The notes: generated from the letters alone by a model not told the origin. Counted from the stretch's first letter, positions 12,526 through 24,000 are shown. The stretch: 24,000 bases of DNA from Candidatus Desulfofervidaceae bacterium (GCA_027064585.1 JAMOPI010000036.1:41777-65776), one strand, 5' to 3'. A program made the numbers and translations.

Positions 12526-12720
12526 AAACTTCACTCTGATCTGTAATCACTTTTCCATCTTCTGGTTGGAGGTATAATTTAAAACAGTTGGAAAGTTTGT
12601 GAGTTTATGGGTTTATGAGTTACCCATTAACGCATTAACACATTAACCCATTTCCAGTTGTGGTTAGGACTAGAGCTTTAGAAAGTTATTACAAAAGGTG
12701 ATTACAGATGAAACTTCACT
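12526..12720. mobile_element. MITE-like non-coding element: 10-bp direct repeats flank 12-bp perfect (15/16 extended) terminal inverted repeats and a roughly 150-bp core
   Basis: Read directly. The direct repeat aaacttcact occurs at 12526-12535 and 12711-12720. The inverted repeat is atctgtaatcac (12539-12550) and gtgattacagat (12698-12709). There is no ORF inside. The core contains an 8-nt-periodic palindromic array (12595-12650). Confidence 0.45.
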
Positions 12721-12725
12721 ATACT

Positions 12726-14678
12726 TTAAACGCCTTTGCTTTTATATTGCACCTTTACTTGCTTAGCCAATATTCTATAGTCTGTCCCGTTTATTTGCAC
12801 CCGTAAAGTTAAACGAATGGTATCAAGATAATCCAAAATGGCTACGGTATACTGGCGAGATAAATTCAGCAAGTTTTTAGCTTGGTTTAAATCCATTTTT
12901 TCATGGGTTAAAAGAAATGCTTTTACTTGTTTCCATGCCTTTTTTAGTAATTTTTGATGTAAAAAACGCCCGTTGTTAAGTTGAACAATGGCCTCTTTAT
13001 CTATTAAAAAGGTTAAAGCCTTTTTTACCTTTTTTTCTTCCGCATGCGGAAATGCCCTTTGAAGTAAAACAAAGGTAAAACCCCTTAAGTCACCGTTAAG
13101 GGCATATTCCTCAATCTTTTTACAAAGCTTTTCTTCCTCTCCCTTAAGAAATGGCAAGAAACCCTTGATATGATAACGCCCTTTCGTTCTATCAATTTTT
13201 CCTTCTTTAAGAAGGGAAACAATTGCTTCCTCAAATACCTTTTTATCAATTTCCCCCACAGATTGTTTTAACTCTTCTTTAGCCAGGCCAATTTTGTAAT
13301 AGAATTGCTGATGATAATTTTTAAGGCTGGATAAAATCTTTTCCTTTACTTCTCTAAAATTGTCAATATGGTAAAATCCATTACCAATTTGAATAATTTT
13401 TCCTTTCTTTAAAAGAGGATCAAGAAAAGAGTAGATTCTTTCTGTGCCTGTTTGTTTGAATAAGTTTATGGGCGTAACTGGGGTCACAAAATACTCTTTA
13501 ATAAGTGCCTCTATAAAATCTACATCTACTCCTTGACAAAATCTGTGATAACGAGGGATCAAAAACCGCATTTTTTGCCGAAATTTGCGTCTTGTTACCT
13601 CTACAACAATACCTCCCCCAATGGTATGGGCTGGGCTTAAACTGCGTACGACAAATCTATCTCCTGGCAGGGCAGCAACCGGAATTTTACATCTAAATTG
13701 AACAAAGCCTTTTTCTCCTGGCAAAAGTTTATCCCTTTCCATAAGCACAACTTTGGCTGTGGTTTCCATAGTGCCAAGGTATAAACGCACAACAGTGTAG
13801 TTGTCAAAAACCTGCTCATCAGGAGGTGTATACACAAAAAGGGCATTGACAAAGTGACTAGTTTCGAGCAAACCGTTCTCGGCCAAAATCATCCCTTTTT
13901 CTACCTTTAAATTATGTCCCGCCAGATTAATACCTACTCTCTGTCCTGCCCTTGCCTCCAATACTTCTTGCCGATGTACCTGAAGTCCCTTTATTTTTAC
14001 TAGCTTACCTTCTGGATAAATACTCAATACCTGCCCTACCCGGCAACTTCCACTTAAAACCGTGCCTGTTACGACTGTGCCTTGTCCTGGAATTTGTAAT
14101 ACCCGGTCAATAGGAAGTCGGAAGAAACCAGTGTCTGACCGAGGTGGAATTTTTTCGCATAAGGATTGCAGATAGGCGATAATTTCTTTTTCACCCTGTT
14201 TTGTCCAAGCAGAAAAGGGAATGATAGGACTATCTGCTAAAAAGCTATCTTTTACCAACTCTTTAATTTCTTCTATCGCCAAAAAACGAGTTTCTTCATC
14301 TACCAAGTCAACTTTAGACAAAACCACAAAGCCATAACGCACATCAAGAAATTTCAAAATTTGAAGATGCTCTCTTGTTTGGGGCATAACGCCGTCGTCT
14401 GCTGCTACTACCAAGATGGCTGCGTCTACACAGCTTGCTCCTCTGACCATGTTTTTGATAAAATCTTCATGACCTGGTAAATCAACAAAGGCAAGTAATT
14501 GCTTCTCTTCTGAATGGATATCTGAAGAAAGTTTAAAAGGAACAACCGTTGGTTCTATCGTCAGGCCCCTTTTCTTTTCCTCCTTTAAAACATCCGGATC
14601 AACACCTGTTAGGGTTTTAACCAAGCTAGATTTACCATGATCTACATGTCCAGCGGTAGCGATCGTATATTCAATCAT
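12726..14678 (-). CDS. selB: SelB-type (selenocysteine-specific-like) translation elongation factor, full length with C-terminal winged-helix mRNA-binding domains
   Basis: It has the SelB-style N-terminus MIEYTIATAGHVDHGKSSLVKTLTG, G3 DLPGHE and G4 SKVD. Domain II reads FRLPIDRVLQIPGQGTVVTGTVLSG. A long C-terminal extension ends in a SelB-like last winged helix (LNLSRQYTVAILDYLDTIRLT). The start is set at ATG 14678, not the track's TTG 14717, which would begin 4 nt after the tRNA. Confidence 0.85.
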   Translation of the reverse strand: MIEYTIATAGHVDHGKSSLVKTLTGVDPDVLKEEKKRGLTIEPTVVPFKLSSDIHSEEKQLLAFVDLPGHEDFIKNMVRGASCVDAAILVVAADDGVMPQTREHLQILKFLDVRYGFVVLSKVDLVDEETRFLAIEEIKELVKDSFLADSPIIPFSAWTKQGEKEIIAYLQSLCEKIPPRSDTGFFRLPIDRVLQIPGQGTVVTGTVLSGSCRVGQVLSIYPEGKLVKIKGLQVHRQEVLEARAGQRVGINLAGHNLKVEKGMILAENGLLETSHFVNALFVYTPPDEQVFDNYTVVRLYLGTMETTAKVVLMERDKLLPGEKGFVQFRCKIPVAALPGDRFVVRSLSPAHTIGGGIVVEVTRRKFRQKMRFLIPRYHRFCQGVDVDFIEALIKEYFVTPVTPINLFKQTGTERIYSFLDPLLKKGKIIQIGNGFYHIDNFREVKEKILSSLKNYHQQFYYKIGLAKEELKQSVGEIDKKVFEEAIVSLLKEGKIDRTKGRYHIKGFLPFLKGEEEKLCKKIEEYALNGDLRGFTFVLLQRAFPHAEEKKVKKALTFLIDKEAIVQLNNGRFLHQKLLKKAWKQVKAFLLTHEKMDLNQAKNLLNLSRQYTVAILDYLDTIRLTLRVQINGTDYRILAKQVKVQYKSKGV

Positions 14679-14721
14679 ATCCTTACCTAACAAACTCAAT
14701 AAATTTTTAAAACTCAAAATT

Positions 14722-14814
14722 TGGAGGGGGCAAGGGGAATTGAACCTCCTCTGGCCTTTTTAGGGCCAGCCAACGGGTTTGCAGCCCGCGGGGAGCACCA
14801 GCTCCATTGCCCCC
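14722..14814 (-). tRNA. tRNA with tRNA-Sec-like architecture but cysteine identity elements (anticodon GCA, discriminator U73); CCA is encoded
   Basis: Hand-folded from the - strand sequence GGGGGCAATGGAGCTGGTGCTCCCCGCGGGCTGCAAACCCGTTGGCTGGCCCTAAAAAGGCCAGAGGAGGTTCAATTCCCCTTGCCCCCTCCA. The acceptor stem is 8 bp (1-8 with 82-89). The D stem is 5 bp with the 4-nt loop UGGU. The anticodon stem is 5 bp with loop CUGCAAA (anticodon GCA, genomic 14782-14780). The extra arm is 6 bp with a 7-nt loop. The T stem is 4 bp (with one A-C mismatch) and the T loop is UUCAAUU. The discriminator is U (genomic 14725), followed by CCA. Confidence 0.85.
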
Positions 14815-14830
14815 TTTTTGGCAAAAATTA

Positions 14831-14859
14831 ATACTACATTGAAATAACAAATAAGTCAA
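14831..14859 (-). promoter_or_regulatory. Candidate sigma70-type promoter for the tRNA-selB unit (TTGACT, 17 nt spacer, TAGTAT)
   Basis: On the - strand the -35 TTGACT is at 14859-14854 and the -10 TAGTAT is at 14836-14831, with a 17-nt spacer. The -10 ends 16 nt before tRNA position 1. This is a pattern match only. Confidence 0.45.
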
Positions 14860-15157
14860 ATAGAAATTAGTTATAACAATCACAATTTTAAACAGGAAGG
14901 TTTATAAAATAATCATTTTAATAGTAACCGCTAAAGGGTAAGCAGTGAATGGGAAGGTAAGGAGTAGGACATACTTATCACTTTTCAGTAACTTTTCTAA
15001 CTCCTTGTACATCCTTTAACTTGAGTTTTATTCTTTTCATAGGTAGCTTCCTTTTATTTGGTTCTTGCTAAGTTTAGCTAGTCGTCCCTGAAAAACGATA
15101 TAACCTACCATTTTATCGCATATTTCCTTGATATTAGGGTGATACAAATACAGGGAT

Positions 15158-15364: not shown

Positions 15365-18300
15365 ATGTCTACTCCTGCGTTTTTTAAAACCGCCTATTTT
15401 GCAGAGAGTTGTCCTAATTGTGGAGGCATAATTGATGATCGGCGTCTTTCTTTAGGCCAGCCGTGTGAGAAGTGTTTGGAAACTCCCCGTGTTTGTGTTT
15501 GCAAGGCATTAAGGAATAAACAGTGTTTAAAGGAAATGGCCACAGCCTGTAGGGTCTGGGAGGAGACAGATCGGTTTAAGAGTTTTTTTACCCAAAAAGT
15601 AGGCTCTTCTCCTTGGGCATTACAGCTTACCTGGGCCAAACGGGCCTTTTTAAAAAAGTCTTTTGCTATTGTTGCGCCTACCGGTGTTGGCAAAACCACC
15701 TTTGGTCTAGTTTTTACAGCCTATCTTTCGCAGCCAAGCTATATTCTTTTGCCGACGAAACTATTGGTCAAACAGGCCTATGAACGTCTTTTAAAATTTC
15801 TTCCTCCTTCCCAAATTGCTGTCTATTTGGGCAAAAAGGATGAAAAGGAACGTATCGCTACGGCCAATTATAAGGTGCTTATCACCACGGTAAACTTTTT
15901 TTACCGTAATTTTGAGCTCATTCCCAAGCATTTTTTTAAATTTATCTTTGTAGACGACGTGGATGCGGTGTTAAAGTCTTCTAAAAATGTAGATTATCTT
16001 TTTAAACTCATGGGTTTTAGCGATGAGGACATAAAACTTGCGCTTAAACGCCAAAAGACAGAAGCCGAAAGAGAGCGCCTTAAGAAACTATCCGAACATA
16101 AAGATATAATCTTAATTGTCTCTTCGGCCACAGTGCAGCCAAAGACCAACCGGGTAATGCTCTTTCAGCAATTGCTTGGGTTTGAGGTGCAGCAGGCCCA
16201 AAGTAACCTGCGTAATATTGTAGACTTATGGCAGCAAGTAGAAAATGAAGATGAAGCTTTGCAAGAAGCCGCTGCTTTTATCCAGAGATATGGGGGAGGT
16301 TGTTTTCTGTTTGTATCTGCTGATAACGGCAAAGAAGGAGTAGAAAGAACTGTTTCTTTTTTAAATAAGCAGGGCATAAAGGCCACTGCCTATCATAAAG
16401 TTAATGATGCCCAGATAAAGGCCTTTTGTCAGGGAGAGCTTAAGGTCGTTGTGGGTATTTCTAATGCCTATAATCCCCTTGTGAGGGGAGTAGATTTGCC
16501 AGAAGCTGTGCGTTATGTCATTTTTTTAGACGTGCCCAAATTGATCTTTCCTACGGTCGTTTCCTTAAGGCCAAGCAGCCTTTTTGGCCTTTTGACCGCC
16601 CTAAAAGACCTCTTACCTGCTGAGAAACTTAACTCTTATCTTTCTTATGTGCGCAGGTATCTTAGTCTTTCTGAGACCCAAATAGACCGCTATCCCCGGA
16701 TCAAGACCCGCCTAGAAGAAATTGCTGCCTTTTTAGAAGCGCATTTAAACGATAAGGACTTTATTGAACGCATAAAAAAGGACGAAAATATTGGTTTAAA
16801 AGAAAAAAATGGTCAGCTCTATATTGTTGTTGGCGATACAAATGGCTATCTCCAGGCCTCTGGTCGGGCCTCACGCTTATTTGCCGGCGGCTTAAGTAAA
16901 GGCCTGGCCTTGACTCTTTATTGGGATAAAAAGGCTGCACGTAGTCTTTTTAAAAGAATGCGTTTTCAGGATAGTGTGCGTTTTGCTCAAATGGAAGAGG
17001 TAGATTTTAACGCCCTTTTTAAGGAGATAGACGCCGATCGCGAACGGATTAAGGCCATTAAGGCCGGCAAGGACTTGCCTGAGAAAAAGGACTTATTTAA
17101 AACCACGTTGGTAGTTGTGGAATCTCCCACCAAGGCCAAGACCATTGCCAGTCTCTTTGGACGACCTAGCCGTCGTCGGATTGGACATTTGCTGGTGTAT
17201 GAAATTAATTTGGAAGATCGCCTTCTCTGTATCACGGCCTCATTAGGACATGTGTATGACCTTACCATCTCTGATGGCTATTTTGGCGTAAAAAAAGAAG
17301 ACGGCCGGTTTTTACCTGTGTATGCGCCGATAAAATCATGCCTTGATTGTGGAGTGCAGACAACCGAAAATCTCTGTCCCCGCTGTCATAAGCCACTTTC
17401 ATTAAGCAAGGCTGAAGTTATCCAGGCCCTAAAGCAGATAGCCCTAGAAGTGGATGAAATTCTTATTGCCACTGACCCAGATACCGAGGGTGAAAAGATA
17501 GGCTGGGATATAAGCCTCCTTTTGCGCCCCTTTCATCCGGTGATCAAGCGGGCCGAGTTTCATGAGGTAACCCGCCGTGCCTTTTTAAAGGCCATCAAAA
17601 ATCTCCGCTCTCTTCATCTGCCTTTGGTTAAAGCCCAAATCCTGCGCCGCATTGCCGATCGCTGGGTAGGGTTTATCCTCTCGCAGCGTCTATGGGAGGC
17701 ATTTCAAAGACGCACTCTCTCGGCCGGACGCGTTCAGACCCCGGTACTTGGCTGGGTGATTGAAAGAGAAAAGGAACGTCGCCAAAAAAAGGCACGCATT
17801 AGTTTTTCCTTAGGCGGATTTTCCCTTTCCTTTGAAGAGTTGGACTTAGACAAGGCAAAAGAAATTTTTACCCGTTTAGAGCAGGCCAAGATAATCATCA
17901 GCGATGCCGGCGAAAAGACTATCTCTTCCCCTCCGCCCTATCACACTGGCCCCCTTTTAACCGATGCCTCACAGCTTTTATACCTAAGCGTCAGCCAGAC
18001 TATGCACCTTCTGCAGGAACTCTTTGAAAAAGGCATTATTACCTATCACCGCACAGATTCCATGCATGTGTCTGAAGTAGGTAGAGAGGTAGCTAAGGAA
18101 TATATTACAGCCAAATTTGGAGAAGAGGTTTTACAAAAAAGGACCTGGGCCAAAGAAGGCACACATGAATGTATCCGCCCTACCCGTCCCTTGGATGAAC
18201 AGGAAATAAGATATATGTTGGCCACAGGGACCTTAGAGTTAAGCAATCCCAAGCAGGCCTTAAGGCTTTACCGGCTGATCTTTAACCGGTTTATGGCTTC

Positions 18301-18847
18301 CCAGATGAAGGATGCCCAGGTAAAGGTAAAGGAATTAAAACTTTGCCTGCCTGAAATTGGGTGGGAGAAAGAGTGGGAGATTTATACAGAAGTAATAGAG
18401 CCAGGATTTAGCTTACTTAAGCCCTTAAAAATCACGCCATTAAAAGAAATAATAATTAAAGATAAGGAGCTTCGCCTTGTACCCAAGGCTATGCCTTATA
18501 CTGAGGGCAGTCTGGTAGAGGAAATGAAACAAAGAGGACTTGGCCGCCCCTCTACATACGCCAAGATTGTGTCGGTGCTCTTAGAGAGAAGATATCTTAT
18601 TTCTCATAAAAATTACCTCTTTCCTACCCGCTTAGGTAAAGAGGTGTTTACCTTTTTAGACAAGCATTACCATGAATATGTGAACGAAGAGTTTACAAGA
18701 CAACTGGAAGAAAAGATGGATGCCGTAGAAGAAAATAAACTTGATTACCAGCAGGTATTAACGGCCTTATTTAAGGAAGTAGTAGAAAAGGAATGGCAAG
18801 AGGACTTAAAGGAGGTAGAGGTCAGCTATGGCAGTTATTTGTCCTAA
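15365..18847 (+). CDS. rgy: Reverse gyrase (N-terminal SF2 helicase-like domain fused to a type IA topoisomerase)
   Basis: A 1160-aa ORF. It has an N-terminal zinc finger (CPNCGG...CEKC), Walker A APTGVGKT and a DDVD box. The Toprim region reads VVVESPTKAKTI and TDPDTEGEKI. An internal zinc ribbon reads CLDCG...CPRC. The catalytic Tyr context is ITYHRTDS. Confidence 0.96.
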   Translation: MSTPAFFKTAYFAESCPNCGGIIDDRRLSLGQPCEKCLETPRVCVCKALRNKQCLKEMATACRVWEETDRFKSFFTQKVGSSPWALQLTWAKRAFLKKSFAIVAPTGVGKTTFGLVFTAYLSQPSYILLPTKLLVKQAYERLLKFLPPSQIAVYLGKKDEKERIATANYKVLITTVNFFYRNFELIPKHFFKFIFVDDVDAVLKSSKNVDYLFKLMGFSDEDIKLALKRQKTEAERERLKKLSEHKDIILIVSSATVQPKTNRVMLFQQLLGFEVQQAQSNLRNIVDLWQQVENEDEALQEAAAFIQRYGGGCFLFVSADNGKEGVERTVSFLNKQGIKATAYHKVNDAQIKAFCQGELKVVVGISNAYNPLVRGVDLPEAVRYVIFLDVPKLIFPTVVSLRPSSLFGLLTALKDLLPAEKLNSYLSYVRRYLSLSETQIDRYPRIKTRLEEIAAFLEAHLNDKDFIERIKKDENIGLKEKNGQLYIVVGDTNGYLQASGRASRLFAGGLSKGLALTLYWDKKAARSLFKRMRFQDSVRFAQMEEVDFNALFKEIDADRERIKAIKAGKDLPEKKDLFKTTLVVVESPTKAKTIASLFGRPSRRRIGHLLVYEINLEDRLLCITASLGHVYDLTISDGYFGVKKEDGRFLPVYAPIKSCLDCGVQTTENLCPRCHKPLSLSKAEVIQALKQIALEVDEILIATDPDTEGEKIGWDISLLLRPFHPVIKRAEFHEVTRRAFLKAIKNLRSLHLPLVKAQILRRIADRWVGFILSQRLWEAFQRRTLSAGRVQTPVLGWVIEREKERRQKKARISFSLGGFSLSFEELDLDKAKEIFTRLEQAKIIISDAGEKTISSPPPYHTGPLLTDASQLLYLSVSQTMHLLQELFEKGIITYHRTDSMHVSEVGREVAKEYITAKFGEEVLQKRTWAKEGTHECIRPTRPLDEQEIRYMLATGTLELSNPKQALRLYRLIFNRFMASQMKDAQVKVKELKLCLPEIGWEKEWEIYTEVIEPGFSLLKPLKITPLKEIIIKDKELRLVPKAMPYTEGSLVEEMKQRGLGRPSTYAKIVSVLLERRYLISHKNYLFPTRLGKEVFTFLDKHYHEYVNEEFTRQLEEKMDAVEENKLDYQQVLTALFKEVVEKEWQEDLKEVEVSYGSYLS

Positions 18848-19721
18848 GTGTGGGCGGCAGTATGATGTGATTTTATTTGATTTTCGGGATATTCTTTTGT
18901 GTGAATGCGGTTATAAGATTAGCAAAGATGACCTTCACCGGCGTTATGTCAAAGAGGCAGACATTTATGTTATCATTCCTGCCCGGTATGCAGCCAAGCG
19001 CTTTCCTGGGAAGCCACTTGCCTTGTGGCAAGAAAGGCCTTTAATTCAACATGTATATGAGTGTGCTTGTAAATCTTCTTTGCCCAAGGCGGTTGTTATC
19101 GCAACGGATGATGAACGTATTGCCCAGTGTGTAGAAGGGTTTGGGGGTAAAGTAGTCATGACTGCCCCTGACCATGCTTCTGGCACAGACAGACTGGCCG
19201 AGGCCGCCAATTTGCTTGGGCTTAAAGCAGAAGATATTATCGTCAATGTGCAAGGAGATATGCCCTATTTTCACCCAGAGATTATTGCTGAGGTCAGTCA
19301 GCCCCTTTTAGAAGATCCCCTTTTACCCATGTCCACTCTTGCCCAAAGGATTAGTTTAAAAGAAGAAATAGCCGATCCTAATTGCGTTAAGGTGGTCTTT
19401 AGCCCTACAGGCAGGGCCATTTATTTTTCCCGTTCTCCCATTCCCTACGATCGGGACAAAAAGGGCATCACCTATTACAAACACCTTGGCATTTATGGCT
19501 ACAGAAAGGCCTTTTTAGATAAATTTGTCAAATTAGAACAAACACCTTTAGAGAAAATAGAAAAGCTGGAACAGTTAAGGGCCTTGGAGCACGGTTATTC
19601 CATCTTTGTAACAGAAACCAAGCACACGGCTATAGATGTGAATGTACCAGAAGATCTGGAAAAATTGGAAAAAGTAGTTGGTGAAGGAAAGGAGGCGCAA
19701 GGAGGCAATAATGGGAAATAA
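18828..19721 (+). CDS. kdsB: 3-deoxy-manno-octulosonate cytidylyltransferase (CMP-KDO synthetase) with a roughly 45-aa N-terminal Cys-rich extension
   Basis: The KdsB core runs from VIIPARYAAKRFPGKPL to the end (NVQGDMPY, LEQLRALEHGY). The N-terminal extension is MAVICPKCGRQYDV...LLCECGYK (CxxC...CxC). The ATG has a GGAGG/AGAGG region upstream and overlaps the rgy 3' end by 20 nt. Confidence 0.85.
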   Translation: MAVICPKCGRQYDVILFDFRDILLCECGYKISKDDLHRRYVKEADIYVIIPARYAAKRFPGKPLALWQERPLIQHVYECACKSSLPKAVVIATDDERIAQCVEGFGGKVVMTAPDHASGTDRLAEAANLLGLKAEDIIVNVQGDMPYFHPEIIAEVSQPLLEDPLLPMSTLAQRISLKEEIADPNCVKVVFSPTGRAIYFSRSPIPYDRDKKGITYYKHLGIYGYRKAFLDKFVKLEQTPLEKIEKLEQLRALEHGYSIFVTETKHTAIDVNVPEDLEKLEKVVGEGKEAQGGNNGK

Positions 19722-20790
19722 AGAGCAAAAATTTTACTCAACTTTAGAAGATTTATTCGTTGGGGCAAAATTGGAAGGACAGAGTGGATATGTGAATTTA
19801 ATGAATATAAAAACGGAATATTTTGAGAAAATAAGACACTTAATTAAAGAAAAGATTTGGGAAGAATTTAGCGAAGATGAAGAAAATGAACTTTTTGATA
19901 AACTTTACACCTTTTTTGACAGTTACTTCAGTGATGGAGGTGCTATCTTCTTTTCATCTACGCCAGTTTATAAAAACATATATGCCAAGATTTATTCTGA
20001 TAGAGAGGATGTTTCTCTTTTTTGGAAGACACGTGATCTTTATTATGTGAAAACTGAAGTTAATTATCAATCCATTAAAAATATGATTTTAGATGAATAT
20101 GACTATTTTAAATTTAATTTTGATGCCAGCCAACTGCAACATAAAAAAGCAAATGAAAAAAAAGAACTTGCTTTTTACTTTGTAGGGTTAGAAAAAACGG
20201 ATGATAATAAGTTTGTTTTAGAATTTAAAGTAAAATATAAAGAATCTGCCAAATATGATAGATTGAAAGAAATATTGCATGTCAACCATACACAGGAATT
20301 AAAAAAATATCTGCAAGAGAATTTAGAGAATTTAGACGATCCTCGCATACGAATTCTTAAAAATAAACTGGACATCTCCCTGCTAAATTTTAAGAATAGG
20401 AATAAAAATACAGTCAAAGCAGAATTTTTAATCACAGAAAAAGAAGATGATATATTTAAAGGCGTAACGATAGAACCCGTCATAACCGATACCCAAGAAA
20501 TTATAAAGTATTGTAATAAAAAGGGCCTGATTGCTATCCATGAGGAAAACATTTTAAAAGCCTTTAGCCTTTATAAAAGGCAAAATGAAATTGACTATTT
20601 TATTCACAAAGACGCACGGAAATTTTTAAAAGAACAATTTGACCTTTACATTTATCAATACCTTGCCAACGACCTTGATACTATATTTGACCAAAAACGG
20701 CTTGATACTGTCAGAAAAATAAAAGAAATTGCCTATTTTGTAATAGAATTGACCCACCGTTTAACACAGGAGAAGATTTTGCTTACATAG
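19711..20790 (+). CDS. mod: N-terminal portion of a Type III-like DNA methyltransferase (Mod), out of frame with the catalytic portion; probably a pseudogene fragment
   Basis: The start is set at ATG 19711 (MGNKEQKFYSTLEDLFVGAKLEGQSGYVNLM...), with AAGGAGG 5 nt upstream. The motifs FVGAK.EG.SGY.NLM, LFWKT..LYYVKTE and NEIDYFIHKD...FLKEQFDLYIYQYL match my recollection of the N-terminal domain of a Mod / N6-adenine MTase family. The sequence is AT-rich, unlike the core genome. Confidence 0.6.
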   Translation: MGNKEQKFYSTLEDLFVGAKLEGQSGYVNLMNIKTEYFEKIRHLIKEKIWEEFSEDEENELFDKLYTFFDSYFSDGGAIFFSSTPVYKNIYAKIYSDREDVSLFWKTRDLYYVKTEVNYQSIKNMILDEYDYFKFNFDASQLQHKKANEKKELAFYFVGLEKTDDNKFVLEFKVKYKESAKYDRLKEILHVNHTQELKKYLQENLENLDDPRIRILKNKLDISLLNFKNRNKNTVKAEFLITEKEDDIFKGVTIEPVITDTQEIIKYCNKKGLIAIHEENILKAFSLYKRQNEIDYFIHKDARKFLKEQFDLYIYQYLANDLDTIFDQKRLDTVRKIKEIAYFVIELTHRLTQEKILLT

Positions 20791-20822
20791 ATAAGTTTCA
20801 AGATTCCACATGGCTTACTCTA

Positions 20823-21857
20823 ATGGAGAATAGATTAGAATTGGCAAAGGAATTGCTAAAAGGAGATGGAAGTTTGTTTTTACATTTGGATTATAATGCA
20901 AACTTTTATGGAAGGATATTACTAAACTCAATATTAGGTGAAAATAATTTCAGAAATGAAATTATCTGGGCTTACAGGACGGGTGGGAGTCCTTCTAAAA
21001 ATAATCCTCTTGCCAGCAAGCATGATACAATTTTCTACTATTCTAAGTCTGATAATCTATTTTTTAAAAAGTTTAAAGAAAAAGTGATTTATGAAAAACC
21101 ATTTTTTACCACACAGAAAGACGAAAATGGTAATTACTACGCTTTAGTTAATCTTAGAGATATTTTTGAAGGCATTTATACTATATTTGAAGGAGATAGA
21201 AAAATAACATTAAATGTAAAGCCTGTAATTAATGTCTCGGCAGAGAGAATAGAAAATTTTCTTACGCAGAAGCCAGAAGGATTGCTTAAACAAATAATCC
21301 TTCTTAGCACAAGAGAAGGAAATTTAATTATGGATTTTTTCTCAGGAACGGGAACAACATTGACGACAGCTCATAAAATGAAAAGAAAATGGATAGGAGT
21401 AGAGTGTGAAGAATATTTTGAAAAAATAATTTTGCCAAGAATGAAAGAAGTGTTAGCAGGTAGAGGAAATCACGAACCTTGTGGTATTTCTGAAGAAGTA
21501 AACTGGCAAGGTGGCGGTTTCTTCAAATACTATGAACTTGAACAATTTGAAGATACTCTTAGAAAAGCTGTTTATAAACCAAAGGATGACAAGATAGAAA
21601 ACATTGAGTTTAATCTTGATATTAAGCTTGCAAAAGATGGATTAGAAATAGATTATGAAAAGAAATTTGCTAAATATACATTTGAAAAGCTATATCCTGA
21701 TGTTGATATTCCAGAAACCATTTCGAATTTAATTGGGAAGAAAATTAAAAAGATTACAAGAGACAAAGTAGTATTTGAAGACGATTTTGAAGTTGACTTA
21801 AATAATCTCACTTTTGAAAAGTATCCATTTTTAAAACCTCTTATTTGGTGGGAGTGA
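20823..21857 (+). CDS. mod: Catalytic portion of a beta-class N6/N4 DNA methyltransferase (Type III Mod-like). The track ORF starts after motif IV. Same-frame homology extends upstream to about 20748.
   Basis: In this frame, open from 20706, nt 20748-20822 read IDPPFNTGEDFAYIDKFQDSTWLTL before MENRLELAKELLKGDGSLFLHLD. Motif IV DPPF is at 20751-20762 and motif I DFFSGTGTT at 21333-21359. The order IV, then TRD, then I is that of beta-class MTases. GGGFFKYYELEQFEDTLRK is also present. Confidence 0.75.
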   Translation: MENRLELAKELLKGDGSLFLHLDYNANFYGRILLNSILGENNFRNEIIWAYRTGGSPSKNNPLASKHDTIFYYSKSDNLFFKKFKEKVIYEKPFFTTQKDENGNYYALVNLRDIFEGIYTIFEGDRKITLNVKPVINVSAERIENFLTQKPEGLLKQIILLSTREGNLIMDFFSGTGTTLTTAHKMKRKWIGVECEEYFEKIILPRMKEVLAGRGNHEPCGISEEVNWQGGGFFKYYELEQFEDTLRKAVYKPKDDKIENIEFNLDIKLAKDGLEIDYEKKFAKYTFEKLYPDVDIPETISNLIGKKIKKITRDKVVFEDDFEVDLNNLTFEKYPFLKPLIWWE

Positions 21858-21858
21858 A

Positions 21859-24000
21859 ATGAGTAGAAAAAATATTATCTTGCAAAGAATAGTCGAAAAT
21901 TATGCAAATGATATTCCTAGCGAGTGGTTTTTACCCCAAGTAAAACAATTTGGCATAAATTGGAAATTGTTTGACTATCAAGTAAGAGCAATAGAATACA
22001 TATCAAAAGCACTTTATTTATATTACACCAGAGGAATAGATGAGTTTTACGAATATTACCAGAAGGAAGGTTTATCTTCAGATTTAGAAGAAAAATTATC
22101 TGTAAAAAAAGAAGACGAAAATTTTAGGATACTCTCTGAGTATTATCAGGTAGTAGAGGATAATAAAATTTCTTTTAAGCAATTCCTAAATAGAGCCTCA
22201 TTCTGGATGGCTACGGGAAGTGGAAAAACGCTTATTATGGTAAAACTCATAGAACTTTTACATTATTTAATGAAAAAGAAACTCATTCCACAAAAAGATA
22301 TTCTTATTTTAGCTCCGAAGGATGAGATATTAAATCAAATTAAAAAACATATTGATATTTATAATCAGAATGTAAGTTTACAAATAGAAATGAGAAATCT
22401 CAAAGAATGGGAAAAAATGAAAGGACAAGTTTCTCTTTTTAATGAAAGCGAGATAACAGTTTTTTACTACAGAGCCGATAATATAACAGAAGAAAATAAA
22501 GATAAGCAGATTAATTATAAGACTTTTTATAACAATGGAAATTGGTATCTCATACTTGATGAAGCCCACAAAGGCGAGAAATCAACTTCTAAAAGACAGC
22601 AGCACTATACAATACTTTCAAAAAATGGGTTTCTTTTTAATTTTTCCGCTACTTTTACAGATGATATAGACATAATAACCACAGTTTTTGATTTTAAGCT
22701 GGATACTTTTTTAAAAGAAGGATATGGTAAAAAAATCTATATAGCAAATAGTGAGTTTAAAAATTTTAAACCACAAAAAAAGAACAGAAAAATCTTAAAT
22801 GACTTTACAGACGAAGAAAAAAAAGAAATTGTTATACAAACATTAATTCTTTTATCTATTGTTAGAAAGCATTATAAAAAAATAAAAAGCATAAGAAGTA
22901 ATTTATATCACGCACCATTGCTTATCACCTTGGCGAATAGCGTCCATGTAGAAGATGCTGACCTAAAAATCTTTTATCAAATATTAGCGGACATCGCACA
23001 GGGAAATTTCAATTTTAAAGCAAGTAAGAAGAGGCTATACCAAAATTTGATGCAGAATTTAGATTATTTATTTGGGTTAGATAAAATAGACGATTCTATT
23101 CTCCAAGGAGTTCAAGATTTAACCAAAGAGGACTTTTTTGAAAATGTTTTTAACACTACCCAGTCTGGCAATATAGAAGTATTGAAAATAAAAGGAAACA
23201 CCAGAGAATTAGCTTTCAAACTTAAAAATGCAAATGTGCCGTTTATGTTAATTGTAGCAAGTGATATTGTTAAGTGGGAAGATAATGTATTGGATGGTTA
23301 TGAATTTGGTGAAACGGTAGAAGAAAGCTTATTTGAAAATATCAATGAAAAAGTTCGGGATAATATAAGCATACTTTTAGGAAGTCGTATTTTTGCAGAA
23401 GGGTGGGATAGTAACAGGCCAAATATAATCAATTTTATTAACATAGGTGTTGATGAAAAGGCTAAAAAATTCGTGCTTCAAGCAATAGGTAGAGGTATAA
23501 GAATTGAGCCTATCAAAAATAATAGGAGAAGATTTGATTATATAGATAAATATGACTTTAGTCCTGAAGACACAAAAAAAATTAGGCAATTTAATAAACT
23601 GCTTGAGACGTTATTTGTTTTTGCAACCAATAAAGAAGTAGTAAAAAACATTTTAGAAGAATTGGAGACGCAGGCTTCTGTCTGGGTGAAAGTAAACGGT
23701 ATTAAGAAAAATGAAAAAATAAATGAAGTTGATTTACCCCTCCTTGTGCCTGAATTTGATTATCAGGGCTTGAATGACAAACCATTTAAAGTCAACAAAG
23801 ATGATTTTAAGCAACTTGAGGATTTTATGGCAAAAGTAGAAGATGAGGTATTGCTTTTAAAAGAAAACATAAAAGTAAGGACATTAAATAAGTTGAAGGA
23901 TAAAAAAACTAACTTTATCTTGGAAGGTAAAAAGAAAAACTATAAACCTGAAGTGTTGTTGAGACATATTGATAACTTCTTCAATAAGCCAGTAAGAAGA
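21859..24000 (+). CDS. res: Type III restriction enzyme Res-like SF2 helicase subunit (3' end lies beyond the window); not in the supplied ORF track
   Basis: I translated it by hand and found 714 codons from ATG 21859 to 24000 with no stop. Motif I ATGSGKT is at 22210-22230, motif II DEAH at 22558-22569, an SAT motif (FNFSATF) is present, and motif VI QAIGRGIR is at 23479-23502. The ATG is 1 nt after the mod stop, giving the mod-then-res order. Confidence 0.8.
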   Translation, partial: MSRKNIILQRIVENYANDIPSEWFLPQVKQFGINWKLFDYQVRAIEYISKALYLYYTRGIDEFYEYYQKEGLSSDLEEKLSVKKEDENFRILSEYYQVVEDNKISFKQFLNRASFWMATGSGKTLIMVKLIELLHYLMKKKLIPQKDILILAPKDEILNQIKKHIDIYNQNVSLQIEMRNLKEWEKMKGQVSLFNESEITVFYYRADNITEENKDKQINYKTFYNNGNWYLILDEAHKGEKSTSKRQQHYTILSKNGFLFNFSATFTDDIDIITTVFDFKLDTFLKEGYGKKIYIANSEFKNFKPQKKNRKILNDFTDEEKKEIVIQTLILLSIVRKHYKKIKSIRSNLYHAPLLITLANSVHVEDADLKIFYQILADIAQGNFNFKASKKRLYQNLMQNLDYLFGLDKIDDSILQGVQDLTKEDFFENVFNTTQSGNIEVLKIKGNTRELAFKLKNANVPFMLIVASDIVKWEDNVLDGYEFGETVEESLFENINEKVRDNISILLGSRIFAEGWDSNRPNIINFINIGVDEKAKKFVLQAIGRGIRIEPIKNNRRRFDYIDKYDFSPEDTKKIRQFNKLLETLFVFATNKEVVKNILEELETQASVWVKVNGIKKNEKINEVDLPLLVPEFDYQGLNDKPFKVNKDDFKQLEDFMAKVEDEVLLLKENIKVRTLNKLKDKKTNFILEGKKKNYKPEVLLRHIDNFFNKPVRR

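Follow-up and report, generated by a model that had tools for sequence, protein, structure and literature searches.

In a 24,000-nucleotide (nt) stretch of the genome of a Candidatus Desulfofervidaceae bacterium (GCA_027064585.1, JAMOPI010000036.1:41777-65776; hereafter the window, taken at its full length), we identified a tRNA that has the architecture of a selenocysteine (Sec) tRNA and the identity of a cysteine tRNA, directly followed on the same strand by the gene of a SelB paralogue. This locus is a selC*/selB* module and represents a new lineage of the system described in 2017-2018. In our preferred reading, to which we assign a probability of about 0.6, the tRNA is charged with cysteine by cysteinyl-tRNA synthetase (CysRS) and diverted from the elongation factor EF-Tu to the paralogue, SelB*, so that cysteine would be inserted at UGA codons preceding a hairpin of the selenocysteine insertion sequence (SECIS) type. 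New here are the host lineage, a sequence signature of the SelB* clade and, in relatives of the locus, operons in which selD carries a UGA codon. The elements that carry the argument are the following:

14722..14814, minus strand: selC*/tRNA-ReC, a Sec-like tRNA-Cys(GCA) of 93 nt including the encoded CCA (ARAGORN)
14679..14721, minus strand: spacer of 43 nt from the tRNA 3' end to the selB* start codon (sequence)
12726..14678, minus strand: selB*, a SelB paralogue of 650 amino acids (aa) with EF-Tu-like domains 1-3 and winged-helix domains (Pfam, NCBIfam)
14535..14561, minus strand: switch-I segment TIEPTVVPF, residues 40-48 (alignment of 144 SelBs)
12795..12920, minus strand: C-terminal winged helix, residues ~587-628, with the hairpin-binding motif NLSRQYTVAILDYLDTIRLTLR (Pfam SelB-wing_3, E = 1e-10; alignment with A. 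aeolicus WHD4)

The tRNA was the sole ARAGORN call in the window, returned as tRNA-Cys(GCA) at 14722..14814 on the minus strand, and it scored 65.8 bits over the full Rfam model of tRNA-Sec (RF01852; gathering score 47; E = 3e-13). Its acceptor stem comprises 8 base pairs (bp; GGGGGCAA/UUGCCCCC), its D arm combines a 5-bp stem with a 4-nt loop (UGGU, vs 3 nt in most relatives collected), its extra arm has 6 bp, with 5 covarying pairs within the family alignment, and its T stem GG(A)GG/CCCC consists of four G-C pairs and one bulged A, i.e. the "modified 8/4" form. As read from the sequence, the anticodon GCA (14782-14780, with G34 at window position 14782) stands in the loop CUGCAAA and the discriminator U73 at window position 14725; with G1:C72, they make up the main CysRS identity elements. 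The molecule thus carries GCA and U73 where a canonical selC would carry UCA and G73, and combines the sequence features of the selC*/tRNA-ReC type: at least 80 nt, a match to the tRNA-Sec model, U73, a GCA or UCA anticodon and the 8/4 fold. An earlier note on this stretch, made from the sequence alone, had described a Sec-like anatomy, cysteine identity through GCA and U73, and a full-length SelB homologue 43 nt downstream on the same strand. The last two descriptions were borne out, by the ARAGORN call and our reading of the sequence for the tRNA, and for the protein by its 650 aa and a match to the NCBIfam selB equivalog TIGR00475 (303 bits vs a cut-off of 242). The first stood for the 8-bp acceptor, the 4-bp T stem, the D arm and the 6-bp extra arm, but not where the 8/4 fold had been taken as a hallmark of bacterial tRNA-Sec, the canonical form of which is 8/5.

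Scanning metagenomes with the anticodon arm gathered a family of ~20 distinct tRNAs, built on the scaffold GGGGGCA... and all bearing U73. In the alignment of 20 distinct relatives, the cloverleaf was 98.8% paired, with 8 pairs altered on both sides, and its covariation score (0.211 vs 0.090 in shuffles) was reached by 0 of 500 shuffles. The same 20 sequences favour the 8/4 fold over a 7/5 alternative, because the eighth acceptor pair 8:82 (A-U in 15, G-C in 3, unpaired in 2) compensates from A-U to G-C three times, whereas the alternative pair 65:82 (A-U in 15) is never compensated and breaks in 5 of the 20.

This conservation also bears on the idea that an ordinary selC/selB pair was misread or misassembled at the anticodon and the discriminator, errors that the earlier note had named, for positions 14782 and 14725, as what would overturn its description. 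Two base changes would indeed suffice to restore UCA and G73. However, the tRNA is identical, base for base, in two independent assemblies, a metagenome-assembled genome (MAG) at NCBI (GCA_053990095.1) and the Logan assembly of SRR7968125, GCA and U73 are kept in ~20 related tRNAs in which stem changes are compensatory, and the downstream SelB falls in a clade distinct from canonical SelB. Since the independent assemblies agree and the conservation is family-wide, we dismissed sequencing error, and the chance of such a distortion appears negligible.

In the two closest relatives (loci L001 and L002) the tRNA is near-invariant, apart from a single compensatory change in its extra arm, and it stays nearly invariant among hosts in which the SelB* proteins are only 39-60% identical. 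Position 33 of the L002 tRNA (L002:3100-3192) is C and not the near-universal U33 (loop CCGCAAA) in a single MAG, which may be an assembly error or a genuine variant. The UCA (opal) anticodon is found on the same U73 scaffold at L108:1821-1912, L134:3136-3227 and L116:663-753; the L108 tRNA precedes a SelB* of the SIESGVAP type, and the L116 tRNA an 884-aa FdhA/NuoG-like open reading frame (ORF) in place of SelB*. Beside this family, a second family of Sec-like tRNA-Cys (GCA, U73, acceptor GGCCGG...) has an identical anticodon arm and no SelB gene downstream; its loci, which are selC* without selB*, include L113, L126, L147, L150, L158, L167, L169 and L180.

Only two proteins are close to the window SelB*, at 93% and ~56-60% identity, all others being at or below 42%. 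The same tRNA lies directly upstream of the SelB gene in L001 and L002, and a 92-nt Sec-like tRNA-Cys(GCA) stands immediately upstream of the next-nearest homologues in all contexts seen. Overall, a Sec-like U73 tRNA, mostly GCA, directly precedes SelB in L001, L002, L080-L085, L105, L107, L108, L124, L125, L128 and L190. L154 and L191 were considered as exceptions to this pairing and rejected as such, SelB* being present ~1.2 kb downstream of the tRNA, beyond two small inserted genes. One of these inserts (L154:9198-11600, L191:129-1653) is MvhD-like and the other is a small conserved ORF (MADI[IV].L.[CS]HK...), and the SelB* frames of both loci look fragmented, through frameshifts or low-quality assembly. 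Among 77 canonical SelB loci, a phylogenetically narrow control drawn mostly from Chloroflexota, none had a Sec-like tRNA-Cys upstream and all carried the L/I motif; one had a canonical tRNA-Sec(UCA) upstream.

A single column of switch I splits the 144 aligned SelBs: the canonical TI[DE]-L-GFA is found in 66, and Pro or Ser occupies the column in 11 of 11 tRNA-linked SelBs and in 58 further database matches. In a neighbour-joining tree, this Pro/Ser group and six Val/Ala variants together make up one 74-tip clade that is free of canonical Leu types. The window SelB* has the clade state at every diagnostic column, and ~18 near-diagnostic substitutions set it against canonical SelB. The states at these columns are, for example:

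column 43: P or S in SelB*, L in canonical SelB
column 79: R in SelB*, A or S in canonical SelB
column 95: D in SelB*, E in canonical SelB
column 249: G in SelB*, A in canonical SelB
column 278: N in SelB*, D in canonical SelB
column 300: Y in SelB*, H in canonical SelB
column 571: R in SelB*, L, I or V in canonical SelB
column 609: T, N, S or Q in SelB*, K in canonical SelB

The clade-wide changes lie beside the aminoacyl pocket (Leu to Pro/Ser in switch I) and in the hairpin-binding helix (SRK to SR-T/N/S/Q). Residue numbers count from the ATG at 14678, and positions were compared through PDB alignments to the SelBs of Escherichia coli and Aquifex aeolicus, for which the pocket residues holding Sec (cysteine in the crystal) have been described (PMC4605307). 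A 663-aa ORF with a TTG start was tried and rejected: it is not on record, and the ATG start is backed by gene calls and homologues; the exact SelB* protein is recorded in GCA_053990095.1. It bears the Pfam domains GTP_EFTU, GTP_EFTU_D2, Beta-barrel_SelB, SelB-wing_2 and SelB-wing_3, and its GTPase motifs GHVDHGKS, DLPG, SKVD and SAW are intact. The pocket core is kept, with D191 and R192 (E. coli D180 and R181), H235 (A. aeolicus H229) and R247 (E. coli R236). Switch I reads TIEPTVV vs the canonical TI[DE]LGFA, Pro43 being the marker of the SelB* clade; Val45 replaces an aromatic side chain (A. aeolicus Phe45) stacked on the arginine of the pocket, and Val30 replaces the switch-I Arg30, for which a role as third selenolate partner has been proposed. 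The losses of Arg30 and Phe45 are confined to the Desulfofervidaceae subclade or to some members of the SelB* clade, and the window switch I (EPTVVP) is the most derived in the clade. The A249G change sits two residues past the pocket Arg, and R192Q occurs in a third of SelB* members. In the C-terminal winged helix, the core of the WHD4 motif is kept with clade-specific changes, e.g. from the canonical SRK to SRQ in the window protein; a comparison of group consensuses gave G.GRt...YLD..fT.R for SelB* vs G.SRKy.IPL.EyfD..k.T.R for canonical SelB. By its sequence, SelB* would be an active translational GTPase that still binds both an mRNA hairpin and an aminoacyl group of the thiolate or selenolate type, its specificity for each being adjusted.

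A decaying selC/selB duplicate, or a non-translational role of the pair (titration of SelB, a sensor of Cys charging, a regulatory RNA), might be suspected from the weak promoter evidence, from C33 in one relative, from the varying genomic contexts of the module and from the fact that no target was identified. Yet the tRNA is nearly invariant, with compensatory stems, next to SelB* proteins of only 39-60% identity; SelB* is full length with its GTPase, pocket and WHD4 motifs intact; the pairing is kept across the 74-tip clade; and the tRNA keeps an encoded CCA and its identity elements. These observations make decay or a non-decoding function very unlikely.

Another use of the tRNA was weighed, in which seryl-tRNA synthetase (SerRS) would serylate it via the long extra arm, in addition to or in place of cysteinylation, SelA would convert the product and Sec would be inserted at UGC/UGU, as in Aeromonas. 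The long extra arm, the 5-bp D stem with its 4-nt loop and the 8-bp acceptor stem speak for this route, as do the selenolate-binding Arg, Asp and His kept in the SelB* pocket and U73, which PMC5389517 reports to be compatible with SerRS in allo-tRNAs. Against it, the CysRS set of U73, GCA and G1:C72 is strong and was counted as family-invariant, and the homologues tested, as reported in PMC5389517 and PMC11415595, were cysteinylated and inserted Cys. The tRNA-Sec(GCA) of Aeromonas salmonicida, which puts Sec at UGC (Mukai et al. 2016, as cited in PMC11415595), does resemble the window tRNA as a Sec-type tRNA with GCA that works with SelB and a hairpin, but it carries Sec and has G73 and Ser/Sec identity, whereas the window tRNA has U73 and the other Cys identity elements. 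Moreover, the Desulfofervidaceae SelB* is without two pocket-adjacent selenolate residues (Arg30 to Val, Phe45 to Val). We therefore hold Sec insertion at these codons to be highly improbable here. In favour of the route, a Pelotomaculum derivative of the selC* tRNA class, in which the Cys identity elements are lost, can reportedly insert Sec, according to a 2018 abstract.

Candidate target sites were found in relatives. In L080:5994-9135, L081 and L082:5890-9027 the gene order is HGD-D, BcrAD, selC*, selB* and selD, followed by TusA/DsrE, YedE/YedF-type and Se/S-carrier genes, and the cluster also has Carb_kinase; the tRNA starts 5 nt past the BcrAD-like ORF. In the selD genes of these three loci the catalytic Cys/Sec position is taken by an in-frame UGA (SRTCG*AAKIGP), and 16 nt after this codon a conserved hairpin of 8 bp begins. 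This arrangement suggests that Cys at the selD UGA would permit SelD synthesis without Sec-tRNA, the synthesis of which needs the SelD product. The UCA members of the same scaffold, too, make a UGA target easier to reconcile with the family than a UGY (UGC/UGU) target.

The competing idea of a UGY target is that SelB* brings Cys-tRNA(GCA) cognately to hairpin-marked UGC/UGU codons, e.g. against stalling or for metal-binding cysteines. GCA is cognate for these codons and no mismatch is required; the hairpin-binding domain of SelB*, kept but substituted, could recognise non-canonical hairpins; and the module is unlinked to selenium genes in Desulfofervidaceae. However, EF-Tu and ordinary Cys-tRNA give the same amino acid at the same codons, with no evident selective benefit left for a dedicated route, UCA-anticodon members of the scaffold are unable to read UGY, no hairpin-marked UGY site was identified, and the published assays, as reported in PMC11415595 and PMC13582414, concern UGA recoding. 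Delivery to UGY codons is thus unlikely.

Our preferred reading of Cys insertion at UGA leans on a system described by others. Mukai et al. 2017 (PMC5389517) named Sec-like U73 tRNAs with GCA or UCA selC* tRNA-Cys and reported them from Clostridia, Bacilli, Thermodesulfobacteria, Thermodesulfovibrio and delta-proteobacteria, with a modified 8/4 fold and a bulged A51a in the delta-proteobacterial form. According to the same source, selC* of Syntrophobacterales and Desulfobacterales has a second selB copy (selB*) downstream, after which a truncated cysS* stands in some cases, and all isolate genomes with selC* also hold a complete canonical set of selA, selB, selC and selD. For Desulfotomaculum nigrificans, Vargas-Rodriguez et al. 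2018, as related in PMC11415595 and PMC13582414, found that a tRNA-Cys(GCA), called tRNA-ReC, is charged by CysRS, is not used by EF-Tu and is delivered by SelB, turning UGA Sec codons into Cys if a SECIS follows; both GCA and UCA forms are reported there to recode UGA as Cys. The second of these sources, a 2026 paper (PMC13582414), calls tRNA-ReC by at least 80 nt, GCA/UCA and a discriminator U, and states that how tRNA-Sec and tRNA-ReC divide the work between them "remains unclear". Work by others in heterologous systems has shown CysRS charging, SelB dependence and UGA-to-Cys recoding, as far as these two accounts go (PMC11415595, PMC13582414). In this light, the earlier note had rightly mentioned reports of such tRNAs from around 2016-2017; the pairing is the named selC*/selB* system of PMC5389517. 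Its description of their function as experimentally unresolved applies to the in vivo role only, given that charging, SelB delivery and UGA recoding have been reported, and the hypotheses it favoured, Cys at Cys codons and Sec at UGY, gave way to the UGA-to-Cys recoding that the published assays support (PMC11415595, PMC13582414).

The window locus resembles selC*/tRNA-ReC in its Sec-like cloverleaf, U73, GCA, 8-bp acceptor, 4-bp T stem with a bulged A and long extra arm, and its host also belongs to an anaerobic sulfate-reducer lineage; however, the main text of PMC5389517 does not name Ca. Desulfofervidaceae (class Ca. Desulfofervidia). Likewise, its full-length SelB homologue lies on the same strand immediately downstream of selC* and falls in the same clade as the tRNA-linked SelBs, although the host is of another order and class than the Syntrophobacterales and Desulfobacterales for which that source reports selB*. 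The cysS*-containing variant of a Desulfobacterales subgroup (UCA, A1:U72, truncated CysRS*) is not matched by the window, which has GCA, G1:C72 and an NAD kinase gene (nadK) downstream; the lack of cysS* in the window is consistent with G1:C72 and GCA, because a special CysRS would not be needed. Canonical selC/selB pairs share the tRNA shape, the SelB domains, the GTPase motifs, the pocket Asp/Arg/His/Arg and the hairpin-binding winged helix. They differ in having UCA and G73, hence Ser/Sec and not Cys identity, an 8/5 fold in place of 8/4 with a bulge, and a SelB of a separate clade with the switch-I motif TI[DE][LI]GFA that the window protein is without. Finally, the archaeal aSelBL/MM1309 (PMC4329189, PMC3037878) is also a SelB-family GTPase that binds Cys-tRNA-Cys and not Sec-tRNA, but it is archaeal and has neither the bacterial SECIS-binding winged helices nor a Sec-like tRNA partner; it was set apart by this description.

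On these grounds, we propose the following course of events. Ordinary CysRS would charge the tRNA with cysteine via U73, GCA and G1:C72, and the 8-bp acceptor and Sec-like shape would avert EF-Tu and steer the tRNA to the co-encoded SelB*. SelB*-GTP would hold the Cys-tRNA in a pocket with the Asp/Arg/His/Arg core for a selenolate or thiolate side chain, and would dock on a SECIS-type mRNA hairpin through its C-terminal winged-helix domains. SelB* would then bring the tRNA to the codon that immediately precedes this hairpin, most likely a UGA read near-cognately by GCA, which would place Cys for Sec. The likely benefit would be a selenium-independent backup or bootstrap for selenoprotein genes, selD itself included. 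That SelB* and not canonical SelB is the carrier, as well as the codons and hairpins targeted here and the physiological role, are points that we infer from the features described above.

Several considerations weigh against this proposal. The reading of UGA by GCA needs a G:A wobble mismatch, and the accounts of PMC11415595 and PMC13582414 report it from E. coli reporters alone, in which a clostridial tRNA worked with canonical SelB and no SelB* was involved. The long extra arm may also leave serylation by SerRS possible. The backup role presupposes canonical sel genes and selenoprotein genes in this genome, and the module does not stand beside selenium genes in Desulfofervidaceae. No target gene combining UGA or UGY with a hairpin was found for this organism: in the window, a scan for TGA with flanking open frame returned three sites only, all antisense to real genes, and no plausible read-through TGA, and a search of the literature on Sec use in Desulfofervidus/HotSeep-1 found nothing relevant.

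The adjacency of the two genes was considered together with their transcription. The selB* ATG occupies 14678-14676 and the tRNA 3' end lies at 14722, 43 nt away; the spacer carries the Shine-Dalgarno-like AGGUAAGGA right before the ATG, a scan of it returned no terminator-like hairpin on the minus strand, and the short spacing is found again in relatives. The conserved adjacency and the lack of a terminator suggest that the tRNA and selB* are co-transcribed. Upstream of the tRNA, one site recalls a promoter:

14831..14859, minus strand: promoter-like site TTGACT-17-TAGTAT, ~10 nt 5' of the mature tRNA 5' end (9/12 consensus matches)

This site had been described as a near-consensus promoter of the tRNA. 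It exists, but its 9/12 matches are moderate, and promoter-like sites are not above chance in the region (5 observed vs 7.8 expected in shuffles). It is kept in L002 (the 93% relative) and L206 and not in L001 (the 60% relative), and the evidence for it is weak.

The host and the surroundings of the module were examined through the following features:

12718..15080: conserved block of 2.4 kb comprising the upstream region, the tRNA, the spacer and selB* (blastn)
15365-18847, plus strand: reverse gyrase (TIGR01054, 1301 bits), transcribed away from the tRNA, with 550 nt of AT-rich intergenic sequence between the two

The closest genomes, two MAGs, bear the label Candidatus Desulfofervidaceae (Thermodesulfobacteriota, class Ca. 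Desulfofervidia), as do the NCBI cluster mates of the SelB* protein. With a reverse gyrase, the host fits a thermophile; the rest of the window is housekeeping (ftsZ, glnA, nadE, hisF/H-like genes, mgtE, rarA, nadK), and ~9 kb of extra left flank beyond the window held only the dcw cluster. By blastn, the block is 92% identical to L002 (L002:2822-5176), the flanks being different, and the similarity to L001 (L001:9872-11125) starts exactly at the tRNA 5' end. The module is flanked by reverse gyrase and nadK in the window, by a toxin-antitoxin gene and a thiamine-binding protein gene in L002, and by a [NiFe] hydrogenase and feeM in L001. As the block is discrete and its neighbours are unrelated in the three related genomes, the module may have been translocated, or the MAGs may be chimeric. 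The large subunit of the L001 [NiFe] hydrogenase (Cys form) ends 85 nt upstream of the tRNA. This gene (L001:8281-9786, NiFeSe-family) was tried as a candidate Sec gene and rejected: the Cys in its DPCLACAVH is encoded by an ordinary UGU, the frame stops at TAG, and the gene possesses a terminator hairpin of its own.

Elsewhere in the window, a kdsB homologue on the plus strand (18828-19721), with its start overlapping the reverse gyrase 3' end by 20 nt, bears an N-terminal extension of ~45 aa with a zinc-ribbon-like CPKCG...CECG. The right end of the window (19678-24000) resembles a restriction-modification or defence islet, made up of an unannotated 370-aa ORF, an N6/N4 DNA methyltransferase (20823-21857) and a ResIII/DEAD helicase-like gene running off the window.

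A Sec-independent role of the module is conceivable because it forms a self-contained 2.4-kb block away from selenium genes. We consider tentatively, and with a small chance only, that SelB* is a cysteine-specialised hairpin-guided factor with its own mRNA-element specificity, i.e. a third channel beside EF-Tu and SelB, which might work without the canonical Sec system or at non-Sec hairpin-marked codons. The genome content would be informative in this respect: if canonical sel genes and UGA/SECIS genes are present, the backup model becomes natural, and if all of these are absent, the pair would constitute a Sec-free, hairpin-guided Cys system.

The selC*/selB* pair is one of the few natural examples of a private factor that takes a sense-type aminoacyl-tRNA to mRNA-marked codons, and our results extend it to a thermophilic class, that of the hydrogenotrophic Desulfofervidus group, known as a partner in methane oxidation. 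The clade signature offers a simple sequence rule to tell SelB* from SelB, both of which are labelled "selenocysteine-specific elongation factor" in databases, and it points to candidate residues that may govern Cys vs Sec and hairpin specificity. For annotation, a UGA in genomes with the selC*/selB* module may mean Cys and not Sec. Finally, the selC*-selB*-selD(UGA) operons of relatives suggest a role for the system, in which SelD made in the absence of selenium would set the Sec pathway going.

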